64,000 nucleotides of DNA from Spirochaetales bacterium (GTDB lineage Bacteria; Spirochaetota; Spirochaetia; JABEVK01), in NCBI GenBank assembly GCA_037142615.1, contig JBAXAI010000012.1, forward strand, positions 26,415-90,414, read 5' to 3'. The position numbers and the translations under genes were made by a program. Below are positions 49,684-63,537 of the stretch, in pieces (position 1 is the first letter of the stretch; each line of letters begins with the position of its first letter). The notes beneath the pieces are model-generated. The model was not told the origin of the DNA. It was given only the letters and a program-made list of their open reading frames with translations, and did not search any database.

Positions 49684-49819
49684 ACGCCAATAGTAATTGC
49701 ACCGGGGCCCGGCGTAAACAGCAAAGAAGTCGACTATTCCGTCCTAATCCCCGTCAACAACCGCCAACGCCGGTCAGGGGCAGACACGAGCGCCCGGGCC
49801 GGTGTATGTTGGCGCACCT

Positions 49820-51658
<1,839 letters not shown>

Positions 51659-51695
51659 TGGAGGGGGGCGTCCCCCCCCTGCGCTCCATAAAAAA

Positions 51696-51720
51696 GGCGG
51701 CCCTCGGGCCGCCTTTTGTT
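51696..51720 (+). terminator. rho-independent terminator of typA (GGCGGCCC-TCG-GGGCCGCC + TTTTGTT), preceded by a G7/C8 hairpin
   Basis: Seen directly. Flanks GCGCTCCATAAAAA and TTTGTTATTGCGCTACCCC are repeated at 63604-63660. Confidence 0.65.
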
Positions 51721-51813: not shown

Positions 51814-54800
51814 ATGCGAACCGTAAGAGACCTCTGTACAATTCAGCCCGGTGCCCTCGATGTCAGCGTTTCCGATCAGATCGAACGCCTCGACCAATTG
51901 ATCAACGAAAAAGGCGATGGCAGGGAGTTTTTTGACAAGACATTTGTCACGGAAGGCATGAAAGCGATGCTTACCGAGGGGTTTGCGCGCCTCTCGGGGA
52001 AGTCCTCACAGGCACTGTTCCACCTGAAACAGGCGATGGGTGGGGGAAAAACCCACCTTCTAGTCAGTTTTGGACTCTTGGCCAAGAGCGTCGATCTTCG
52101 CCGCTTGGTCACCCCCAACATCGCCTATCACGAGTCTTTCGTTCCGGCCAAGGTCGCCGCCTTCACCGGACGAAACTATCCCAACGAATACTTCTGGGGC
52201 TCTTTGGCGAGCCAACTTGGTAACCCCGCGCTCTTTTCCCGCTATTGGACCAATGGACCGGACGCCCCAGGTGAGGATGCGTGGCTCCAACTGTTTGACG
52301 GTGACCAACCCATACTCATCCTGCTTGACGAATTGCCACCCTACTTTAACTTCTACCGAACCAAAGAAGTCGGCCAGGGGACTGTTGCAGATATAGCGAC
52401 CAGTGCGCTCTCCAACATGTTTTCGGCGGCTAGCAAGAAGGCGAATGTCTGTGTCGTGATCGCCGATCTTAATGCCGCTTACGAGAAAGGCGCCGCGGGG
52501 ATCAACCACGCGCTCGAGGACGCGAAACAGGAGCTTGGTCGGGGGGCAAAAACCATTACACCGGTTGACTTGGCCGGTAATGAAATCTACGCCATCCTAC
52601 GCAAACGTTTGTTCGCCTCGCTGCCAAGCCAGAGTGCCATCGACGAAGTAGCTGCCGGCTATGGAAGGGCGATCGCCGAGGCCAGCCGGGCCAAGATGAT
52701 CGGTCGGTCAGCCGAGGCGATCGCCGACGAAATCAGCCAAACCTACCCGTTCCATCCCAAACTCAAGAACCTCATTGCGTTGTTCAAGGAGAATGAACAG
52801 TTCCGGCAAACACGTGGCCTCATGGAATTGGTTTCCCGACTTCTGAAGAGCGTGTGGACCCGCGAACTGAACGACGTCTACTTGATTGGCCCGCAGCACT
52901 TTGATCTGTCGATCTCCGAGGTTCGCGACAAGCTTGCTGATATTTCCGACATGGCCGACGTGATTGCCAAAGACTTGTGGGACGCCAACGGTGCCGCACA
53001 TGCTCAGGTGATTGACGCTGATACCCAAAATGACGCTGCTCGCATTGCAGCGAATCTCGTGTTCACCTCGAGCCTTTCGACCGCGCACAACGCGGTTCGC
53101 GGCCTGACTTCCGAGGAAATTCTGGAATGTGCCATTAGTCCGTTTCAAGATGCTGCCAGCATCACTACGGCATTGGAGCAACTCAACTTGCAGGCATGGT
53201 ACTTGCACCACTCGGGCGAAGGGAAGTACTTCTTCGACAGGGTCGAGAACCTGACCAAGCTATTGCAGGACCTCGCGGAGAAGGCACCAAGACCTCAGGT
53301 CGACCAGGTGATTCAGAAGAGACTATCCGATCTCTTTCAGCCGACCCGCAAAGTTGCGTACGAAGAAATGATCGCGCTCCCGACTCTCTCGGAGGTGGAA
53401 GACACTATCCGAAAAAAGCGAGTCCTACTCATTCTACCCCCTGAGGGTAAGATCCCTTCCGACGGACTTGAGAAGTTCTTCCAGTCGATTCAGTCCAAAA
53501 ACAACTTGTTGGTGCTGACCGGGGAAAAGAGCGTGATGGACAACCTTGAGGCCAAAGCAAGGTACGTGTTCGCATCCATCAAAGCTGAATCCAGAATCCC
53601 CAAGGGACACGCTCAGCGTGAAGAACTCGAGCGGAAGCAAGAACAGTACTCTGCTGACCTTCTGACCGCGACCCTCAACACGTTCGATAAGGTAGTGTTC
53701 CCCACCCAACGTTCGGGTCAACAGGCTCGCCTTGTCTCCAAGCCGCTTTCTCAAAGCTATAACCAGAGCAAACCTTACAATGGTGAACAGCAGATAGAGG
53801 CCACGTTGGCGGCGGACCCTCTGAAGTTGTATGTCGATGTTGCCCAAGATTTTGAGGCGATTCGCGACAAAGCGCAGGATTTACTGTGGCCGCAAGGGAG
53901 CGACGATACGAGGTGGACGGACGCTCGAGAGCGGGCAACTCAGGAACCGGCCATGCCCTGGCTACCGTCCGTAGGTTCCGCAGGTCTCGAACTCGTGAAA
54001 CAACTGGCTCTCAGCCATGGCAAGTGGGAAGATCTGGGGAACGGATACGTCACCAAGAAACCCCGCCCCAAGAAGGCGTCGTTGCAGATTTCGCAGGAGT
54101 CGGAGCCCGACGACGAAGGCCGAGTCCGCTTGAGGCTGGTACCTCAGAACGCAGGCAATCAACCCAAAATCTACGTTCAGGAAGAAGGGTCGGTCTCACC
54201 TTCCAGCCCAGTTCATCTAGATACACTGTTTTCAACCAAAGCCTTGTGGGCCGAGTTTCTTGTTGTAGACCCTTCGGGCCAAGCCCTGCCCGGTGAGCCA
54301 ATACGGTGGGACAACGAGCTGGTGATTCGTCATCGGGTAAGCGGTCAAGGAGCCCACCGAAGCGTGGAGTTGTACCTGTCGCCGCGCGGAAAACTTTGGT
54401 ACAGCCTCGATGGTACAGAACCTCGAAACGGTGCCTCCTATGATGGCTCCTTCGAAGTCGCAGAAACGGGAGGCCGGCTGCTTGTCTATGGCAAAGCCGA
54501 CGCCCTTGAAAAAAAGGCTGACTTCACGATTCCGGCAGTTCAGCAAAACGAAGTCACCTTCGACGAGAGTCGGCCCGCAAGTCTAGTTCGGCCTTCACCG
54601 TTTCGCCTTGACTCGCGACAGAAGACATTCGAGCTCTTGGAGCTAGCTGCAACCCAACAAGTGGTGTTTTCCAAACTCTCGCTGGCCGTCGGCCAAATGG
54701 CTTCTGCGATTTCGGTGACAATCCCACAGAAAGAAGTTAGCGCCGAGTATCTTCTGAAGATTGTGAAGGCCATTAGCGACGACCTGCCAGCCAGCGAACC

Positions 54801-54906
54801 TATCACTTTAGGGTTTTGCCGCGCCCAGTTTCGCCTTGGCAAAGAGCTCAAGGAGTTCACCGACCGAGCTGGCTTCAATCCGCAGGCAGGAGACATTGTT
54901 CAGTGA
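51814..54906 (+). CDS. large P-loop NTPase (about 1030 aa; Walker A-like MGGGKTHLL near N-terminus), possibly DUF499-type defence ATPase
   Basis: Walker A GGGKTH at aa about 75. Hydrophobic-DELP Walker B-like (ILILLDELPPYF). No other recognisable domain. First gene of coupled operon. Confidence 0.55.
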   Translation: MRTVRDLCTIQPGALDVSVSDQIERLDQLINEKGDGREFFDKTFVTEGMKAMLTEGFARLSGKSSQALFHLKQAMGGGKTHLLVSFGLLAKSVDLRRLVTPNIAYHESFVPAKVAAFTGRNYPNEYFWGSLASQLGNPALFSRYWTNGPDAPGEDAWLQLFDGDQPILILLDELPPYFNFYRTKEVGQGTVADIATSALSNMFSAASKKANVCVVIADLNAAYEKGAAGINHALEDAKQELGRGAKTITPVDLAGNEIYAILRKRLFASLPSQSAIDEVAAGYGRAIAEASRAKMIGRSAEAIADEISQTYPFHPKLKNLIALFKENEQFRQTRGLMELVSRLLKSVWTRELNDVYLIGPQHFDLSISEVRDKLADISDMADVIAKDLWDANGAAHAQVIDADTQNDAARIAANLVFTSSLSTAHNAVRGLTSEEILECAISPFQDAASITTALEQLNLQAWYLHHSGEGKYFFDRVENLTKLLQDLAEKAPRPQVDQVIQKRLSDLFQPTRKVAYEEMIALPTLSEVEDTIRKKRVLLILPPEGKIPSDGLEKFFQSIQSKNNLLVLTGEKSVMDNLEAKARYVFASIKAESRIPKGHAQREELERKQEQYSADLLTATLNTFDKVVFPTQRSGQQARLVSKPLSQSYNQSKPYNGEQQIEATLAADPLKLYVDVAQDFEAIRDKAQDLLWPQGSDDTRWTDARERATQEPAMPWLPSVGSAGLELVKQLALSHGKWEDLGNGYVTKKPRPKKASLQISQESEPDDEGRVRLRLVPQNAGNQPKIYVQEEGSVSPSSPVHLDTLFSTKALWAEFLVVDPSGQALPGEPIRWDNELVIRHRVSGQGAHRSVELYLSPRGKLWYSLDGTEPRNGASYDGSFEVAETGGRLLVYGKADALEKKADFTIPAVQQNEVTFDESRPASLVRPSPFRLDSRQKTFELLELAATQQVVFSKLSLAVGQMASAISVTIPQKEVSAEYLLKIVKAISDDLPASEPITLGFCRAQFRLGKELKEFTDRAGFNPQAGDIVQ

Positions 54907-55490
54907 ACAATCTGCCCCAGTTTGAAGACTTTGGTGCACCCACTAGGGTGGGCTCTCACATCTTCTTGGTCGATATTCCCATCAGTCGTTCAGAGCCGGT
55001 TCTCATTCTGGAAAACTATGGCTTCCTTGGCGGTGAACGGGGTATTCCCGAGAAGGAAACCCGCGTCAGTCTGAATCGCAGCCATTGGTACGGTATTTCG
55101 GAGATCGCCCGACAAGACTTCAACGATCGGCTCAAGGGCAAGAAGATGACGACGAGCCGATGGACGACCGGCCTGAACAAACTCGACAAGCTATTGGGCA
55201 AAGAACTCTGCGTGCTAGCCTGGGCAGCAGAGCAGTCGTCGTTGGAACAGCTGCCCATCGTTTGCCACAGGTGGGTGTCGCTCCGACCAGAGGAACGCTG
55301 GTGGTTGTTTCGCATGACTGTCGCCGAGGCAGGGCTGGCGCAAGACCTCGACCGAGGCTGGCGAAAGGCCCTCCACTTTGCTCTTTCTGATGGTAAGATT
55401 GACGAGCGGCGCATCAAGCGCCCCCGACCCGATGACGACGACGAGGATTTGTCGTTGTTCGGTGGTTCCGTGCAGGAGGTTCACCAGTGA
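54903..55490 (+). CDS. small protein (195 aa) with acidic C-terminal tail (RPRPDDDDEDLSLFGG), function unknown
   Basis: GTG overlapping upstream stop (GTGA). Always-coupled position between the large NTPase and the AAA ATPase. Confidence 0.45.
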   Translation: MNNLPQFEDFGAPTRVGSHIFLVDIPISRSEPVLILENYGFLGGERGIPEKETRVSLNRSHWYGISEIARQDFNDRLKGKKMTTSRWTTGLNKLDKLLGKELCVLAWAAEQSSLEQLPIVCHRWVSLRPEERWWLFRMTVAEAGLAQDLDRGWRKALHFALSDGKIDERRIKRPRPDDDDEDLSLFGGSVQEVHQ

Positions 55491-56533
55491 TTAGCCACCT
55501 CAGCGTTGAAAACTTTGCGGCACTGGAGCAGGCCGAGCTCGACTTTTCCCCGGGGCTGAATGTCATCCTGGGCGAGAACAGCACCGGCAAAAGTTTGCTG
55601 ATGAAATTGATGTATTCCGGCGCTTGGGTCAGCCACTCCTTGGGGAAAGGCGACCGCAAAACCAAAGATGAGCTGCAGCGAGCCATAGCTGACAAGCTGA
55701 AGGCAGTGTGCATTCCTGAATCTCTTGGGAGACTCGTTACCCGGAAGGCGGGCCGAAATCGGTGCACGGTTCGGGTATCGTTCAGCGAACCCCAGAATGC
55801 CTCATTCGGGTTCTCATTCGCCACAAATAGCGATCGTGAAGCCAAACTCGACGGCGCCACCCCCGAAGGCTACCTGAGCTCATCGCCTATTTTCATTCCA
55901 ACAAAAGAAGTTCTTTCGGTGTTCCCCAATTTTGCAGCGACACTTCGCTCCAAGCACCTCTTCTTTGACGATACATACCTTGATTTGCTCGACGCACTCG
56001 ACCAGCCAGTCAACAAAGGGGCCCCCAAGAAGGACGAAAGAGAACTCCGGGATTCACTGGAGCAGGCAATGGCGGGTCGCGTTGTGTTCGACGGAGGCCG
56101 CTTCTACTACCTGCCCGAAGCAGAGGGCAAAGGGAAGATTGAAATGCCGTTGGTTGCCGAAGGCCTACGGAAGATTTCGATCTTGACCTACCTAGTGATG
56201 AACGGTGGCCTGCGCAATAAGTCTCTCTTATTCTGGGACGAACCTGAGGTTAACTTGAACCCCAAACTGATGCGCAGACTTGCCGTCGTGTTGGTCGACA
56301 TGGCCGAGCGCGGGGTTCAAGTGATCCTTGCCACTCATAGTCTGTTCTTGCTCCGCGAGTTGGTCATTGCTCGCGCCAGTAGCAAGACGAAAGAACCCGT
56401 GCGTTTCTTTGCCCTTTCGAAGCAAGGAGACACGCAGAGGGTGACGCAAGGTGACTCGGTCGAAGAGGTCGACCCGTTGGCCAGTCTCGATGCGGAACTG
56501 GAACAGAGCGATCGGTACCTGGAGCTTCCTTGA
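55487..56533 (+). CDS. AAA/ABC-type ATPase (RecF/SMC-like, AAA_21-like: Walker A GENSTGKS ... Walker B LLFWDEPEVNL ... ATHS)
   Basis: GTG start overlapping upstream stop. P-loop at N-terminus, Q/signature region, D-loop and H-loop spacing typical of the OLD/AbiEii/Septu-PtuA-type ABC ATPases. Confidence 0.7.
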   Translation: MISHLSVENFAALEQAELDFSPGLNVILGENSTGKSLLMKLMYSGAWVSHSLGKGDRKTKDELQRAIADKLKAVCIPESLGRLVTRKAGRNRCTVRVSFSEPQNASFGFSFATNSDREAKLDGATPEGYLSSSPIFIPTKEVLSVFPNFAATLRSKHLFFDDTYLDLLDALDQPVNKGAPKKDERELRDSLEQAMAGRVVFDGGRFYYLPEAEGKGKIEMPLVAEGLRKISILTYLVMNGGLRNKSLLFWDEPEVNLNPKLMRRLAVVLVDMAERGVQVILATHSLFLLRELVIARASSKTKEPVRFFALSKQGDTQRVTQGDSVEEVDPLASLDAELEQSDRYLELP

Positions 56534-57072
56534 TGCAAGTCTTCGACGAGCAGGGAATTGCGTTTGCCTTTCCTGACGACTTTGTCGTTTTTCGCCCTCA
56601 ACACTCCGTTTTTTACAGAAAGTTGTGGCAGCGGTTTTCGATCCCCGACGCGGCGGGCGAGAAAGGAAACAAAGAAGCTGACTTCGTTGCCGTCGACCGA
56701 AAGGAGCAACGCCTTTGGCTCATCGAGGCCAAGGACTATCGTGTCCACGAACGCACCAAGCCCGGGTCACTGTCGCAGGAGTTTGCCCGCAAATGCCGCG
56801 ATTCGCTGGCATTGTTGGCCGCGTTGCAGCTCAGTAGCACCGCAGCCGAGGTTGGCGAAACAGCGAGCGGGCTGTTGGATGGTCTCAAGAAGGTTTCTTG
56901 CGTCTTGCACGTCGAGCAGAAGGCAGGTGAAAAACTTTTCCCGCTGGCGGTCAGACCCACTGACCTGAAAGACGCACTGCGTCGCGAACTACATGCCCTT
57001 GACCCCCAGGCGCTCACGGGTACGGCTGCGGAGCTCGCAACACTTCAACTTCCCTTCACCATCACCGTCTAG
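56533..57072 (+). CDS. small PD-(D/E)XK-like putative nuclease (motif D-x19-EAK: ADFVAVD...LWLIEAKD)
   Basis: 179 aa. ATG overlaps ATPase stop (TGATG). D/ExK arrangement consistent with restriction-endonuclease fold (inference). Confidence 0.4.
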   Translation: MQVFDEQGIAFAFPDDFVVFRPQHSVFYRKLWQRFSIPDAAGEKGNKEADFVAVDRKEQRLWLIEAKDYRVHERTKPGSLSQEFARKCRDSLALLAALQLSSTAAEVGETASGLLDGLKKVSCVLHVEQKAGEKLFPLAVRPTDLKDALRRELHALDPQALTGTAAELATLQLPFTITV

Positions 57073-57080
57073 GAGCCCCC

Positions 57081-59042
57081 ATGCCAGTAGTTCCCTTTTC
57101 CCTCAAAGAAGCACCGGCGTTGATCGAAACGCTGTTCCCGGCCCAGAAGTTGTCGATCGAAGCGTACAAGGAACAGATGGCGGGCAGCGGCAAGACCTTG
57201 ACCGCTTTGGGAAGCTACTGGAAGGGCCGCAAGCCGCTCATCTTGAACCGTGCCTGTGTCTTGGGCTGCCTGCTGCCGGTGACTGCCAACCCCATCCGGG
57301 ACCTCGAGATTTTCGAGAAGCTAATGGCCATGGACGAAACCGCGCTAACTCACCGTCTCAAGGCCAAGAACGACAAGAAGAGTCGCTCTCTTATTTCCAG
57401 CTATCAACATAAGGTCGATGCCGCCTGTCGCCCCGAGGAGTGCGACAACACTTTGTACGACGGGATTTGGCCCGAGGTAAACGCTCACTTGGGCACCGAA
57501 GCGACGAGCTTTCCCGAGTTGGTGGAACAGCTGGGAATCATGCGCTTTGGCCACCGTCCCCGGTTTGCCGACGTGTTTTCGGGCAGCGGGCAGATTCCCT
57601 TCGAGGCCGCCCGGCTGGGCTGCGACGTGTACGCCAGCGACCTGAACCCCGTGGCCTGCATGCTTACTTGGGGCTCGTTTCATTTGGTGGGTGCCCAGCC
57701 CGAGGAGCGGCAAGAGATTGCAGTGGCGCAGGCACGGTTGGTGCAGAAGGTGCAGTCCGAAGTCGATGCCTTGGGCATCGAGAACGACGGCAAGGGATGG
57801 CGGGCTAAGGCCTTTCTGTATTGCGTCGAGGTAAGGTGCCCCCAGACAGGCTGGATGGTGCCGCTGATTCCCAGTTTGATTGTCAGCCAGCCACGTACGG
57901 GCGAGGTGCGCAACAACGTGGTGGTTCAGCTGGTTCCCCTGCCCGCCGAAAAGCGCTACCGCATTGATGTGGTTTCGTTCGCCACTGAAGCCCAACTGGC
58001 TCAAGCCGAACTCGGCACCGTACAGGGCGGCGAGATGGTGCATTCGCCCGACGGTACCAAGGTGTACCGCACCAAGATCAGCACCTTGCGGGGGGATTAC
58101 GCCGAGGGCGGCGAAACCAAGAACAGGCTGCGAATGTGGGAAAAGCATGACTTTGTAGCTCGGCCCCACGACCTATACCAAGAGCGACTGTACTGTGTGC
58201 AGTGGCTTCGCACCAAAGCCGCTGGCCGGGGGCAGGAGTACGAGTTCCGGTCGGTGACTCCCGACGACCTGACGCGCGAGAAAACAGTGATCGACTTTGT
58301 GGGATCACGGCTGGCCGAATGGCAGGCCAAGGGTTGGGTCCCCGACATGGTGATCGAGGCCGGGGCCAAGACCGACGAGCCGATTCGCACCCGGGGCTGG
58401 ACTCACTGGCACCACCTGTTCAACCCGAGGCAGTTGCTGGTGGCGGGGTTGGTGCGGCAAAACATCAACTCCACCACGGCGTTCGGACTGTCGCAGGTGA
58501 TCAACTGGAACAGCCGGTTGTGTCGATGGAATATGGGCAGCGGTGGCGGTGGCAGTATCCAGGACGTATTCTACAATCAGGCTCTCAATACTCTTTTCAA
58601 CTACGGTTGTCGTAACACAGCTCTGGCCCTTACCCAGGTCGACCTCGGTGCCAGGAGCTTTCCTTTCGCCAAAGGAGTGAAGGCTGAAGTGAAGACTCAC
58701 GCGGCCAACGCCATCACCGCGCCCACCGATCTGTTCATCACCGACCCGCCGTACGGCGACGCCGTCAAGTACGAAGAAATCCTCGAGTTCTTCATCGCCT
58801 GGCTGCGCAAGAACCCGCCTGCCGAGTTCAAAGGTTGGGTGTGGGACAGCCGCCGGGTGATGGCCATCAAGGGTGAAGACGACAAGTTCCGGCAGGCCAT
58901 GATCGACGCGTATTCGGCCATTACGCGTTGTATGCCCGACAACGGTATGCAGGTCATCATGTTCACCCACCAGTCGGGCAGCATTTGGGCCGACATGGCG
59001 CACATCGTGTGGGCGGCGGGGCTGCAGGTCACGGCGGCGTAG
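57081..59042 (+). CDS. N6-adenine DNA methyltransferase (motif I FxGxG: DVFSGSGQIPFE; motif IV DPPY: FITDPPYGD), terminated by in-frame TAG
   Basis: AGGAG RBS. SAM-binding motif near aa 165 and DPPY near aa 545 with a large intervening region. Ends at TAG 59040-42. Confidence 0.75.
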   Translation: MPVVPFSLKEAPALIETLFPAQKLSIEAYKEQMAGSGKTLTALGSYWKGRKPLILNRACVLGCLLPVTANPIRDLEIFEKLMAMDETALTHRLKAKNDKKSRSLISSYQHKVDAACRPEECDNTLYDGIWPEVNAHLGTEATSFPELVEQLGIMRFGHRPRFADVFSGSGQIPFEAARLGCDVYASDLNPVACMLTWGSFHLVGAQPEERQEIAVAQARLVQKVQSEVDALGIENDGKGWRAKAFLYCVEVRCPQTGWMVPLIPSLIVSQPRTGEVRNNVVVQLVPLPAEKRYRIDVVSFATEAQLAQAELGTVQGGEMVHSPDGTKVYRTKISTLRGDYAEGGETKNRLRMWEKHDFVARPHDLYQERLYCVQWLRTKAAGRGQEYEFRSVTPDDLTREKTVIDFVGSRLAEWQAKGWVPDMVIEAGAKTDEPIRTRGWTHWHHLFNPRQLLVAGLVRQNINSTTAFGLSQVINWNSRLCRWNMGSGGGGSIQDVFYNQALNTLFNYGCRNTALALTQVDLGARSFPFAKGVKAEVKTHAANAITAPTDLFITDPPYGDAVKYEEILEFFIAWLRKNPPAEFKGWVWDSRRVMAIKGEDDKFRQAMIDAYSAITRCMPDNGMQVIMFTHQSGSIWADMAHIVWAAGLQVTAA

Positions 59043-59045
59043 TAC

Positions 59046-59915
59046 GTGGTCACCGAAACCGACAGCGCCTTGCGCGGCAGCAACAACGTCAAAGGAACAG
59101 TGCTTCTGGTACTCCGCAAACGACAGGGTGAACACAAAAGCAGCCGCAGCGACTTGGGGTGGGAACTGCAAGAAGAAGTCGACCGGCAAGTGCAGACTCT
59201 GACCGGTCTGAACCAGAGCGCGAAGACTCTGTACCGAGACGAAAACTTGTTCAGCGACGCCGACCTACAGATGGCGGGCTACGCGGCGGCGCTGCGAGTG
59301 CTTACCCGGTACACATTCATCGACGGCAAAGACATGCGTATCGAGGCCGGGCGCCCCAAACAGAAGGGCAAGAAGGACTTTGTCGAGCAGCTGATCGACT
59401 TTGCCGTCGAGACCGCCAACGGGGCTTTGGTCCCCTTGGGGCTGGAACGTTCCGTGTGGGAAAAGCTTACCCCCGGCGAGCGGTTCTACCTCAAGATGAT
59501 CGACCTCGAGTCGCAAGGGGCCAAGTCGCTCGACAACTACCAAAACTTCGCCAAAGCGTTCAAGGTGCCTGACTACCGGCTGTACCTGGCCGAAGACCGG
59601 GCCAACCATGCCCGCCTTAAGTCAGGCGCCGATTTTGGACGCAGCGAAATGTCCGACTCTTCCGAACTGGCGGGCACCCGGCTCCGGGGCTTGCTGTATG
59701 GCTTGATGGAACTGGGCCAAGGCGTCGAGTCCGACGATGTGCTGGGTCACCTGAGTCTGAACGTGAAGAACTACTTCAACTGCCGTTTGGAACTTGTCGA
59801 AATCGCCGACTTCTTGGCCGCCAAGCTGGAGCACCTGGACGCCGACCAGGCCAGCCACGCACGCGTGCTGCGCGACCTGGTACGCCACCAGAAACTCGGC
59901 GCCTGGGAAAACTGA
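59046..59915 (+). CDS. C-terminal continuation of the methyltransferase reading frame (289 aa, same frame, separated only by TAG + one codon)
   Basis: 57081 and 59046 are both congruent mod 3. E plus F would give about 944 aa. Either a split gene or nonsense-interrupted pseudogene. Confidence 0.5.
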   Translation: MVTETDSALRGSNNVKGTVLLVLRKRQGEHKSSRSDLGWELQEEVDRQVQTLTGLNQSAKTLYRDENLFSDADLQMAGYAAALRVLTRYTFIDGKDMRIEAGRPKQKGKKDFVEQLIDFAVETANGALVPLGLERSVWEKLTPGERFYLKMIDLESQGAKSLDNYQNFAKAFKVPDYRLYLAEDRANHARLKSGADFGRSEMSDSSELAGTRLRGLLYGLMELGQGVESDDVLGHLSLNVKNYFNCRLELVEIADFLAAKLEHLDADQASHARVLRDLVRHQKLGAWEN

Positions 59916-62665
59916 TGCCGATTCGACGTTTTTCCTCGCTGCACGAGCGCCTCGACAAGAGCTTTCTGGCCGAACACCTCAAGGGTGCCCGCTCATATCG
60001 CCGCATCGCCGGGTACTTCCGGTCGTCCATCTTCGAGCTGGTGGGCGAAGAAATCGCCGGTATTCCCGACGTACGAATTCTGTGCAACAGCGAACTCGAT
60101 GTGCACGACATCAATGTAGCCCAGGAAGCCAGCCGCAACGTTGCCTTGAAGGAAAAGTGGAATCAGGTTCCTGTGGAAGTGGAAGGGCTACTCCACAAGC
60201 ACCGTTATAGGGCCCTCTACGACTTGCTCATGGCCGGAAACCTGAAGATCCAGGTGGTTCCCAAAGACAGCGTGTTCGTGCACGGCAAGGCGGGCGTCAT
60301 CGAAGGCGCCGATGGCAAGCGGATCGCCTTCTTGGGCTCGATCAACGAAAGCAAGTCGGCGTTCCTGACCAATTACGAAATTCTTTGGGAAGACGACAGC
60401 CCGGAAGGTGTCGCGTGGGTCGACCGTGAGTTTGACGAGCTTTGGAAGCGCAGCTACCCCTTGCCGCAAGCCATTATCGAAGAAATCGGCAGAGTGGCCA
60501 ACCGAACCGAGGTCAGGTTCGAGGATTTAGAAGACGCCGACATTCCCGCCTCGGCGTTGGTAGAGGCGCCCATCTACCGTGGCGGCGAGCAATTGCAGCC
60601 CTGGCAGCGGTCCTTCGTGACGCTATTTCAGAAGCATCGCGATATGTACGGCAAAGTACGCCTATTGCTGGCCGACGAAGTCGGGTTGGGAAAGACCCTC
60701 TCACTGGCCACCGCAGCGATGGTGGCCAACCTCATGGGCGATGGCCCCGTTCTCATCCTGTGCCCGGCGACCTTGGTGTGGCAATGGCAGGTCGAACTCA
60801 AAGATCGGCTGGGGATTCCCAGCTGCGTGTGGGAATCCAGCAAGAAGGTTTGGGTCGACCCCGAGGGCCGGGTGATCCCTACCAAGGGTGCCGAAGACAT
60901 CGCCAAGTGTCCCTTCCAAGTCGCCATTGTCTCTACGGGGCTCATTTTCCAATCGTCCCGCGCGCGCGAACCCGAGGTGTTGTTGCAGCGCCGGGGTGGC
61001 TACGGAACTGTAGTGCTGGACGAGGCACACAAAGCCCGCAAGCGCGGTGGCCTGGGCCAACGTGACGCCGAACCCAACAACCTGCTTGAGTTCATGCTCC
61101 GCATTGGCGAGAAAACTCGACACCTGCTTTTGGGAACGGCGACGCCCATCCAAACCAACGTGGAAGAGCTTTGGGACCTCATGGAGATCCTTTCGGTCAA
61201 GGCGGAGTTCGTGCTGGGTCGGGAAACGCCTTCTTACTGGCGCCGCATGGACTTCGCGCTCCCACTGATCAAAGGGGAATCGGTACCTGAAAGTGCGCTC
61301 GAAGCTTGGGATCTGCTTCGAAACCCACTGCCACCGATTCAGGAGACCTGCGAACCGGCTGCGATGATTCGGACCCTGCTCGAGTTGGAAGACAGTCGAT
61401 TCTTCGTTCCTACAGGATACCATCAGCTCGATCCGACCGTTCAGATGCAGGTAGACCAAGCTATGGAACCAGGTTTTTTTCGCGAACATAACCCTTTGCT
61501 CAGGCACGTCGTCTTGCGGAAACGGGCCCGATTGGAAGACTTGGGTCTGTTGGAACGCATCCGTGTCGACGTTCATCCGGACCCTGAATTGGGCCCTGGA
61601 GCCTACCCCGGAATCCCCTTTGCCGTAGAGGGACAGGGACTCCTGACCAATCAACCGTTCAACCTAGCTTACCGAGCTGCCGAGGAATTTACGCGCCTCC
61701 TTGCATCCAAAGTAAAGAGTGCGGGGTTCATGAAGTCCCTGATGCTGCAACGAATCTGCTCGAGCTTTGCGTCGGGACTTTCGACAGCCCGAAAGATCAT
61801 GGCAAAAGCAATCTTGGGCGACTCGGAAGATGAATCCCAATCGATGTCTGCCGTCTACGACGCCATTGGCGAAGAAGAACTCGCCCAACTGCAGATCATT
61901 GTTGACGAGCTTTCGCGGCCGGAAGCCCGTGACCCCAAACTGGGGGCGGTGAAGCATTTTCTGCTGGAACATCGGTCCGCGTTTGATGACACTTTGGCTC
62001 AACCTCACAACTGGCTCGAATACGGGTGCATCATCTTTTCGCAGTACTACGACACTGCGCTCTGGGTGGCGAAAGAGCTCGCCAGGGTGCTCCCCGACGA
62101 ACCGGTCGGTGTCTACGCTGGTTCAGAGAAGAGTGGGATCTACCGCAACGACGACTTCAGTAGCGTTGAGCGTCATCAGCTCAAACTTGCGGTCAAAGAT
62201 CGAAGTATCCGGCTCATGGTGGCTACCGACGCGGCGTGTGAGGGACTCAACCTTCAAACCCTTGGAACACTAATAAACGTTGACCTCCCGTGGAACCCGA
62301 GCCGTCTGGAACAACGTCTGGGCCGCATCAAGCGCTTTGGTCAGGCTCGCAGAAGCGTCGACATGCTCAATTTGGTCTACCACGACACCCAGGACCAGAA
62401 GGTCTATTCAGTGATTTCCCAGCGACTTAAGGACAAGTTCGACATTTTCGGCAGCCTTCCCGATACGATCGACGACGAGTGGATTGCCGACGAGCAAACA
62501 TTGGAAGAGCGACTAAATCAGTACCTCCATCTCCGTGATCAAGCCAAGAATGCGTTTGAACTCCGCTATGAAGATGACGTCGACCCCGAGAAGAATCGAT
62601 GGGAGCTTTGTAGCCGAGTTCTCAGTCGAAAGGACATCGAAGAGAGAATGGCAAAGAGTTGGTAA
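59915..62665 (+). CDS. PLD-family (HKD) nuclease domain fused to SNF2/DEAD-like superfamily 2 helicase
   Basis: N-terminal HxK...D / GSxN (VHGKAGVIEGADGKRIAFLGSINESKSAF). Helicase motif I LLADEVGLGKT, II VVLDEAHKARK, III LLLGTATPIQ, C-terminal helicase domain (MVATDAACEGLNLQ, QRLGRIKRFGQ). ATG overlaps upstream stop (TGATG). Confidence 0.8.
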   Translation: MPIRRFSSLHERLDKSFLAEHLKGARSYRRIAGYFRSSIFELVGEEIAGIPDVRILCNSELDVHDINVAQEASRNVALKEKWNQVPVEVEGLLHKHRYRALYDLLMAGNLKIQVVPKDSVFVHGKAGVIEGADGKRIAFLGSINESKSAFLTNYEILWEDDSPEGVAWVDREFDELWKRSYPLPQAIIEEIGRVANRTEVRFEDLEDADIPASALVEAPIYRGGEQLQPWQRSFVTLFQKHRDMYGKVRLLLADEVGLGKTLSLATAAMVANLMGDGPVLILCPATLVWQWQVELKDRLGIPSCVWESSKKVWVDPEGRVIPTKGAEDIAKCPFQVAIVSTGLIFQSSRAREPEVLLQRRGGYGTVVLDEAHKARKRGGLGQRDAEPNNLLEFMLRIGEKTRHLLLGTATPIQTNVEELWDLMEILSVKAEFVLGRETPSYWRRMDFALPLIKGESVPESALEAWDLLRNPLPPIQETCEPAAMIRTLLELEDSRFFVPTGYHQLDPTVQMQVDQAMEPGFFREHNPLLRHVVLRKRARLEDLGLLERIRVDVHPDPELGPGAYPGIPFAVEGQGLLTNQPFNLAYRAAEEFTRLLASKVKSAGFMKSLMLQRICSSFASGLSTARKIMAKAILGDSEDESQSMSAVYDAIGEEELAQLQIIVDELSRPEARDPKLGAVKHFLLEHRSAFDDTLAQPHNWLEYGCIIFSQYYDTALWVAKELARVLPDEPVGVYAGSEKSGIYRNDDFSSVERHQLKLAVKDRSIRLMVATDAACEGLNLQTLGTLINVDLPWNPSRLEQRLGRIKRFGQARRSVDMLNLVYHDTQDQKVYSVISQRLKDKFDIFGSLPDTIDDEWIADEQTLEERLNQYLHLRDQAKNAFELRYEDDVDPEKNRWELCSRVLSRKDIEERMAKSW

Positions 62666-62900
62666 GGGCTCCGGGCAGCGCCCGGCGAGGGGGTAGCGGA
62701 AGACCCCGCAGGCGCAGCCGAGGAGGCTGAAGCGAGGGGGAGACTTCCCCCCTTGGTCCAGTCGACCTACCAAGCTCCTCGGCCGAGATCGGGGCTTTGG
62801 CTAAGCCGAGGGAGAAGCGAGGACCGCAGGCGTACTGGAAGTACGTCGAGGACCGGAGCCGCCCTAGGCGACGCCAAAGACCCGAGATCGGCCGAGGAGG

Positions 62901-63537
62901 GCACGAGCCCATCGAGCACCGCCACATCGACTGCGAAGAAAGCTACACCGGCATCGTCACCGAAAAGCTGAGCATGCGCAAATGCCGCATGACCAACATG
63001 GTCAACCACGGCAGCGGTCGCGTGCGCCTGGAGTTTTCGGCCCCCAGCCGCTCGCTCATCGGTTACCGCGACGAGTTCCTCACCGATACCAAAGGCACCG
63101 GCCTGATGAACAGCTACCTCGCCGGCTACGAACCCTACCGCGGCGAAATCCCGAGCCGTAACAACGGCTCTTTGGTGTGCGACCGCCAGGGCGAAGCCGT
63201 GGCCTACGGCATTTTCCACCTCGAACCCCGCGGCCGCATTTTCGTGGTGCCCGGCGACAAGGTGTACGAAGGCATGATCGTCGGCGAACACAACCGCGAC
63301 CTCGACCTCGACATCAACGTGTGCAAGGAAAAGAAACTCAGCAACATGCGCTCCGCCGGCAAAGACGACAACATTTTGCTCACGCCCGTGAAGCCCATGA
63401 CGCTAGAGGCCAGCCTGAACTTTTTGCGCGACGACGAGTGGCTGGAAGTGACCCCGAAGAATTTGCGGTTGCGGAAGCAATACCTGGGGATTGCGGATCG
63501 GAAGCAACACAGTAAGAAACTCAACGACGGGGTGTAG
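62901..63537 (+). pseudogene. typA: diverged duplicate of the 3' terminal ~640 bp of typA (encodes C-terminal about 211 aa of TypA, no 5' part)
   Basis: Aligns with 51022-51658 at roughly 90% nucleotide identity with mostly synonymous differences. Encoded peptide nearly identical (…DKVYEG… vs …DKCYEG…). Confidence 0.8.

Follow-up and report, generated by a model that had tools for sequence, protein, structure and literature searches.

Why should a gene pair encoding an ABC (ATP-binding cassette) ATPase and a small putative nuclease lie in the middle of a restriction-like operon, and does it act there as a second defence system or as an effector arm of the first? The question arises in a 64,000-nt stretch of DNA (hereafter the window) from a Spirochaetales bacterium (GenBank assembly GCA_037142615.1, contig JBAXAI010000012.1, positions 26,415–90,414 of the forward strand), in which a sequence-only reading, made without database searches, had noticed the pair and had allowed for both possibilities. 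We find that the pair belongs to the HEC-02 family of defence modules and is, with high probability, nested as a discrete, autonomous cassette of ~1.6 kb in the slot between the DUF3780 gene and the methylase gene of a Type-2 BREX-related (BR) operon. The two genes are as follows.

55487–56533, plus strand: HEC-02 ABC ATPase, 348 aa, GTG start (PADLOC, Pfam, AlphaFold2/Foldseek, and invariant motifs).
56533–57072, plus strand: HEC-02 partner, 179 aa, putative nuclease of the NERD-like PD-(D/E)xK type (PADLOC, near-invariant residues, and a weak NERD match).

The two open reading frames (ORFs) lie where the sequence-only reading had placed them, with the lengths and the TGATG overlap that it gave. 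The ATG of the small gene, at 56533 within CCTTGATGCAA, shares one base with the TGA of the ATPase gene (TGATG); a mechanical ORF list gives the small protein as 180 aa by starting it at a TTG one codon 5' of this ATG. At its upstream end, the GTG start of the ATPase gene overlaps the stop codon of the DUF3780 gene as GTGA. The pair as a whole (55487–57072) is flanked by the DUF3780 gene (54903–55490) and by the methylase gene (from 57081), and the earlier placement between an NTPase and the methylase is right on the 3' side only, the immediate 5' neighbour being the DUF3780 gene rather than the NTPase.

HEC-02 (Hma-embedded candidate 02) was defined by Payne, Hughes, Fineran & Jackson (bioRxiv 10.1101/2024.01.29.577857), and its models are available in PADLOC-DB v2. 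It consists of an ABC ATPase and a NERD-like PD-(D/E)xK protein embedded in Hma systems, and a representative in Escherichia coli lowers phage plaquing by orders of magnitude, with both genes needed and in a host without Hma or BR genes (bioRxiv 10.1101/2024.01.29.577857). The ATPase of the window matches PADLOC model PDLC04146 with an e value of 6e-107, residues 1–347 covering model positions 1–342 of 344, and also matches two further HEC-02 ATPase models (PDLC04213, 6e-86; PDLC04214, 5e-66). The small protein matches PDLC04145 (7.9e-29), residues 1–162 covering model positions 1–153 of 170, and the HEC-02 partner models PDLC04228, 04221, and 04224 at 3e-7 to 3e-5; no PADLOC family other than HEC-02 matched it. 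Together with the Pfam AAA_21 match of the ATPase (8e-20), the two leading PADLOC scores (6e-107 and 7.9e-29) put the identification of the pair far above chance. These profile matches confirm the pair as a member of the HEC-02 family and as a real module of an ATPase and a nuclease-type protein, and they bear out the earlier suggestion of a two-gene defence module built from an ATPase and a stand-alone nuclease, since HEC-02 models match both proteins and the pairing described below is strict. In PADLOC-DB v2.0.0 the A and B labels of the two best models appear to be interchanged when compared with the paper and the remaining HEC-02 models, the label HEC-02B (PDLC04146) being attached to the ATPase and HEC-02A (PDLC04145) to the small protein.

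The ATPase carries the full set of motifs expected of its class. Pfam matches comprise AAA_21 (8e-20), AAA_15, AAA_23, and SMC_N, and thus include both of the profiles, AAA_21 and AAA_15, by which the sequence-only reading had proposed to check it. The Walker A motif is G29ENSTGKS36, the Walker B motif with the catalytic glutamate is LLFWD251E252PEV, and the H-loop is ATH284S; in an alignment of 60 homologs G29, N31, G34, K35, D251, E252, P253, H284, and S285 are invariant, and the three motifs read earlier from the sequence are accordingly all present with their key residues unchanged. A signature-like segment, A224-E-G-x-R-K229, is conserved to the same degree in this alignment (A224, E225, G226, R228, and K229 invariant). 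The AlphaFold2 model of the protein (pLDDT 90.3, pTM 0.90) retrieved Rad50 and SMC heads and PtuA from the PDB in a Foldseek search with e values of 2e-15 to 1e-12 and a probability of 1.00. By sequence, the nearest proteins of solved structure are PtuA of Septu and of retrons, Rad50, and FtsE, with PtuA the closest (5.5e-6). The predicted fold is thereby confirmed as that of an ABC ATPase of the Rad50/SMC/OLD-like type and not AAA+, and the assignment to the OLD/Septu-PtuA-type class of ABC ATPases made by the sequence-only reading is backed by the Pfam matches to AAA_21, AAA_15, and SMC_N and by the structural matches alike.

The small protein belongs to a family that comprises 595 representative clusters, mostly of ~170 aa, in an exhaustive profile search. 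Among 126 diverse members we find a conserved D50-x14-E65-x-K67 motif, with D50 present in 125, E65 in all 126, and K67 in 120 sequences; D68, K87, H126, and E128 are also near-invariant. The segment ADFVAVD...LWLIEAKD from which a D-x19-ExK signature had been read is indeed there, but the spacing had been miscounted: the conserved aspartate is D50, hence x14, and D55 is not conserved. In the AlphaFold2 model (pLDDT 94.2, pTM 0.90) D50 opens one β-strand and E65-x-K67 lies in the next; a long helix and a further strand come after it. The commonest weak Pfam match within the family is NERD (33 of the 126 members, best e value 5e-4), and DUF6661, Hjc, pPIWI_RE_REase, Mrr_cat_2, and HSDR_N_2 are matched less often and likewise weakly; where coordinates were inspected, the weak NERD, Hjc, and REase matches map exactly onto the D…ExK hairpin. 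The small protein thus has the nuclease motif, and its features are consistent with a PD-(D/E)xK fold. A DUF4435-like partner, which had also been named for the profile search, is not supported, as neither protein matches Toprim or DUF4435 in Pfam or PADLOC.

The operon in which the pair lies extends from 51814 to 62665. In addition to the pair, it contains the following genes.

51814–54906, plus strand: DUF499 ATPase, 1030 aa (PADLOC DUF499, e value 0, and HmaC, 1e-52; Pfam DUF499).
54903–55490, plus strand: DUF3780 protein, 195 aa (Pfam DUF3780, 1e-65; PADLOC DUF3780, 6e-70).
57081–59915, plus strand: DUF1156 N6-adenine methylase, split by an amber codon into 653 aa and 289 aa (PADLOC DUF1156_MTase).
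59915–62665, plus strand: PLD(HKD)-SNF2 helicase, 916 aa (PADLOC PLD_Helicase, e value 0; Pfam PLDc_2, SNF2-rel_dom, and Helicase_C).

Including the pair, these genes form one co-directional, translationally coupled operon. The end of the DUF499 gene (54906) overlaps the start of the DUF3780 gene (54903) by 4 nt, the GTGA and TGATG junctions follow, and a spacer of 8 nt precedes the methylase gene. A scan of the operon for promoters and terminators gave counts no higher than those in shuffled sequence and no internal promoter signal. The Type-2 form of BR systems is centred on DUF499 and combines it with a standalone DUF3780 protein, which is its hallmark, a DUF1156 methylase, and an HKD(PLD)-helicase, whereas Hma is the Type-1 BR form (PMC12839542). 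Judged by its gene content, the host operon is a Type-2 BR system with all four defining components present in one locus, and the "R-M-like" (restriction-modification-like) operon of the sequence-only reading can be specified as a restriction-like system of this type, each of its four components being matched by Pfam or PADLOC. The PLD-SNF2 helicase is presumed to be its restriction effector. We considered canonical Hma (Type-1 BR) as the host and rejected it because the helicase has an N-terminal PLDc_2 domain and shows no match to NOV_C, the C-terminal nuclease of canonical HmaA, and because DUF3780 is present. In agreement with this, the HmaA, HmaB, and HmaC models match only weakly (1e-32, 2e-21, and 1e-52) compared with PLD_Helicase, DUF1156_MTase, and DUF499 (e value 0). 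The host operon is a sibling of Hma and not Hma proper.

The methylase gene of this operon is interrupted by an in-frame amber codon at 59040–59042, where TGG, encoding the Trp of a conserved VTAAWYVVTETDSAL motif, has become TAG. The two halves match positions 2–651 and 654–944 of the 944 positions of the DUF1156_MTase model, the 653-aa part being the catalytic one and the 289-aa part the C-terminal one, and the PLD-helicase downstream is intact. The VTAAWYVVTETDSAL motif is identical in the four methylase homologs compared, and homologs have an unsplit protein of 932–952 aa. An assembly error was rejected and the amber codon is regarded as real because the same TAG recurs in two other assemblies (L115, Logan SRR8517161; L116, GCA_005795825.1).

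To what extent does the pair belong to this operon? The small protein recovered 15 genome loci, and in each of them, as in every metagenome locus examined, the gene directly upstream of the small one encodes an ATPase homolog; the joint conservation of the two genes, by which the sequence-only reading had proposed to judge its idea, was therefore found throughout. None of the DUF499, DUF3780, methylase, and helicase genes of the window was detected beside the pair in the 15 genome loci. In three of the loci (L005, L006, and L013) the neighbors are housekeeping genes, namely dnaX/recR, SOD and a MiaB-like gene, and prs/FGGY/DAGK, a PADLOC scan of ten flanking proteins from these loci returned no match, and a copy in Thiobacillus is likewise standalone. 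The proposition that the pair is always embedded is rejected on the basis of these three sets of flanking genes. The slot itself is variable. We surveyed 80 metagenomic relatives of the window's DUF3780 protein (54–70% identity), 71 of which were informative, and found that the DUF3780-to-methylase slot is empty in 63 of these 71 Type-2 BR operons, the start of the methylase gene overlapping the stop of the DUF3780 gene there (ATGA). The remaining eight hold cargo that includes one HEC-02, two YhcG/DUF1016 proteins of the PD-(D/E)xK type (PADLOC PDC-S02), an IS200 transposase, a MazF-like toxin, and unknown small proteins; at a further locus, in which the methylase was not seen, a DUF4062/HATPase_c_4 protein is encoded just 3' of DUF3780. 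In one locus (L022, 6684–8509) an AAA_21 ATPase (378 aa) and a DUF4276 protein (230 aa) are encoded upstream of HEC-02 in the same slot, so that two ABC-ATPase modules are stacked.

Movement of the pair is recorded in a comparison of close relatives. In a tree of the ATPases, from which L031 was left out since the pair, though present, has a frameshifted ATPase in this old assembly, a standalone pair from Breznakiellaceae, found in two independent assemblies, nests within the embedded clade, and its ATPase is 95% identical to that of the embedded copy in L025. DNA homology between the standalone copy (L020, 3510–5131) and the embedded one (L025, 4142–5763) is confined to a single block of 1,622 bp with 88.5% identity, which spans from 16 bp 5' of the ATPase start, that is, the 3' end of the DUF3780 gene, to ~20 bp 3' of the stop of the small gene. 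At this downstream edge the standalone copy retains a decayed methylase start (ATGCCCGTGA changed to ATACCCGTGA), a scar showing that the 1.6-kb cassette was excised from a BR operon and indicating movement from the embedded to the standalone position. The cassette contains no transposase, integrase, or repeats. Between the standalone and embedded copies dN/dS is 0.05 for the ATPase and 0.135 for the small protein, and function has therefore been maintained in both contexts. Of the two roles between which the sequence-only reading did not choose, a nested second system is hence favored by the standalone copies, the variable slot, and the activity of HEC-02 on its own, and an obligate effector arm is disfavored.

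In this reading the pair is co-transcribed and translationally coupled with the host operon. On the model of Septu PtuAB, PARIS, and Gabija, the ABC ATPase may serve as a sensor or gatekeeper that holds or gates the small nuclease, and an infection cue would shift its nucleotide state or conformation and so license nucleic-acid cleavage, providing a second, independent layer of defence. The ATPase and the small protein would form a physical complex, the substrate may be DNA or RNA, and the outcome may be abortive infection.

Several points weigh against this picture. The locus comes from a metagenome-assembled genome (MAG) of an uncultured Spirochaetales bacterium and is known as sequence alone. 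Foldseek matches of the small protein were not significant (best e value 0.12 in the PDB, with TM scores of at most 0.37, and 1.2e-3 in BFVD), even if the top ones in both databases are mostly PD-(D/E)xK enzymes, and a profile of the family searched against PDB sequences gave spurious matches alone, at e values of 0.19 or worse. Furthermore, at least five other lineages (L022/23, L024/25, L026–28, L031, and L111/112) share the six-gene composite of BR operon and HEC-02, with host proteins 63–79%, ATPases 62–72%, and small proteins 45–49% identical to those of the window, and given this recurrence the pair could be functionally coupled to its host system.

Such coupling is the core of the stronger of two competing explanations, which would make the pair an effector arm or guard that depends on the Type-2 BR system, as PrrC does on EcoprrI, and hence not an independent system in this setting. 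BR proteins would keep the ATPase and the nuclease silent, and the two would act only once the BR complex had been disabled by a phage anti-restriction factor. The six-gene order common to at least five other lineages at 62–79% identity would be expected if this were so, as would the overlapped or tightly spaced junctions between all genes and internal promoter and terminator signals that do not rise above chance, and embedded ABC-ATPase modules have been proposed to serve as backups or guards (bioRxiv 10.1101/2024.01.29.577857; PMC12839542). However, the published HEC-02 works in E. coli without Hma or BR genes, most of the family members examined stand alone, with housekeeping genes around them, and a copy with a 95%-identical ATPase persists alone under purifying selection. 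Moreover, 89% of the related BR operons have no cargo in the slot and others hold unrelated cargo. A guard relationship is not needed to explain the data, and we consider dependence on the host system unlikely. In a more specific form, HEC-02 in the composite would be a PrrC-like guard that is held by DUF3780 or the methylase and freed by an anti-restriction factor or by loss of the methylase, as in the amber allele; this form is doubtful to the same degree, but if true it would, for the first time, define what triggers an ABC-ATPase/NERD module and tie an embedded module functionally to a BR system. The second explanation, in which the pair would be a selfish cassette of the addiction or toxin-antitoxin type, or else a passenger in decay, with no defence role in this genome and hitch-hiking in a degenerating locus, could draw on the fixed nonsense codon in the host methylase, on the IS200 transposase and MazF-like toxin gathered in the slot of relatives, and on the Pfam description of AAA_21 as a "putative AbiEii toxin," but it is very improbable given that both ORFs are uninterrupted and no catalytic residue is missing, that dN/dS is far below 1, that defence activity has been demonstrated experimentally for the family, and that the cassette lacks a transposase, integrase, or repeats.

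The autonomous cassette and its host operon together make up the entire contents of an 11-kb genomic island, whose insertion point is the 3' end of typA/bipA and whose GC content is 55–60% compared with ~63–65% around it. Its boundaries are the following.

49802–51658, plus strand: typA/bipA, the 3' end of which is the left boundary of the island (translation; Pfam GTP_EFTU and BipA_C).
62899–63537, plus strand: duplicated 3' fragment of typA, the right boundary of the 11-kb island (DNA repeat; tblastn).

The direct repeat of the typA 3' end is ~636 bp long (51023–51658 and 62899–63537), with the last ~190 bp identical and the rest ~92% identical, and in tblastn the fragment matches residues 395–618 of typA with 94% amino acid identity. 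Repeat searches revealed only this duplication and one inverted repeat, a tRNA search of the island found none, and an integrase, tRNA, or transposase as the origin of the island or the cassette was rejected because none was found. The inverted repeat (62775–62812/62862–62899) has arms of 38 nt that are 82% complementary and 49 nt apart; it directly abuts the start of the right typA fragment and may serve in recombination or as a structured terminator. At the other end of the island, a hairpin with a T-run, AAAAAGGCGGCCCTCGGGCCGCCTTTTGTT, lies at ~51690–51720, just 3' of the typA stop, and the defence operon must therefore have a promoter of its own within the ~100 bp before 51814. The typA fragment is followed immediately, just beyond the 3' end of the window (from ~63736; L001, 17204–20540), by another restriction-like cluster, which encodes an HSDR_N/DEAD/SWI2_SNF2 protein (843 aa), an NYN-domain protein (202 aa), and an N6_Mtase and Methylase_S fusion (822 aa), the NYN gene being nested in its turn, with the R-like gene on one side and the M/S-like gene on the other. 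Given this second cluster, the typA 3' end looks like a hotspot for defence islands.

Both the HEC-02 module and its nesting in DUF499/BREX-related operons have already been published, and the member described here is new. Beyond annotation its significance is slight, as it is one more example of HEC-02 in a published kind of context. The analysis adds a quantification of slot variability (63 of 71 empty), the stable inheritance of the composite of BR and HEC-02 across several lineages, and, in the near-identical pair that lies outside the operon with scars of host genes, direct evidence that a ~1.6-kb cassette moves autonomously; these additions may inform experiments that ask why defence systems come to lie inside one another.

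Among known systems, Septu, the one most often embedded in Hma, shares the two-gene logic of an ATPase and a small nuclease, and its PtuA is the closest ATPase of solved structure by sequence (5.5e-6) as well as one of the top structural matches. The partner in the window is of the PD-(D/E)xK/NERD type, whereas PtuB is an HNH nuclease. Septu was rejected as an identification because the small protein lacks any match to HNH or PtuB, the resemblance of the ATPase to PtuA being one of fold and motifs, and no PtuA or PtuB model is among the top PADLOC matches listed for the pair. PARIS (AriA/AriB), Gabija (GajA), and the OLD nucleases also use an OLD-type ABC ATPase as sensor, and the ATPase gives partial hidden Markov model matches to AriA (1e-20), GajA, and Old that are limited to the conserved ATPase motifs. 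Their effector is a Toprim or DUF4435 domain, which is absent here, and all three were rejected because Pfam and PADLOC match neither domain in the ATPase or the small protein. PrrC in the EcoprrI type Ic R-M locus is comparable as a nuclease linked to an ABC-type NTPase and embedded among R-M genes, but it is a single-polypeptide anticodon nuclease for which silencing by the host R-M complex has been shown, and no such dependence is suggested here. The closest system is HEC-02 itself, with which the pair shares the co-directional order of an ABC ATPase (~345 aa) and a NERD-like protein of ~170–180 aa with a (D/E/Q)xK motif, as well as the embedding in a defence operon with DUF499, DUF1156, and a helicase. 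It differs in its host, a Type-2 BR operon with DUF3780 and a PLD-helicase instead of canonical Hma (Type-1 BR), and in its source, since this member was read from a Spirochaetales MAG and the activity data come from the published representative only. Finally, a survey of BREX and BR loci found OLD-type ABC ATPases paired with HNH, PD-(D/E)XK, or PIN nucleases in 594 taxa and interpreted the embedded dyads as suicidal effectors that back up the host system (NAR 2026, PMC12839542). The architecture and context of our pair are exactly as catalogued there; the survey favors backup effectors, whereas the data presented here stress the autonomy of the module and the mobility of its cassette.

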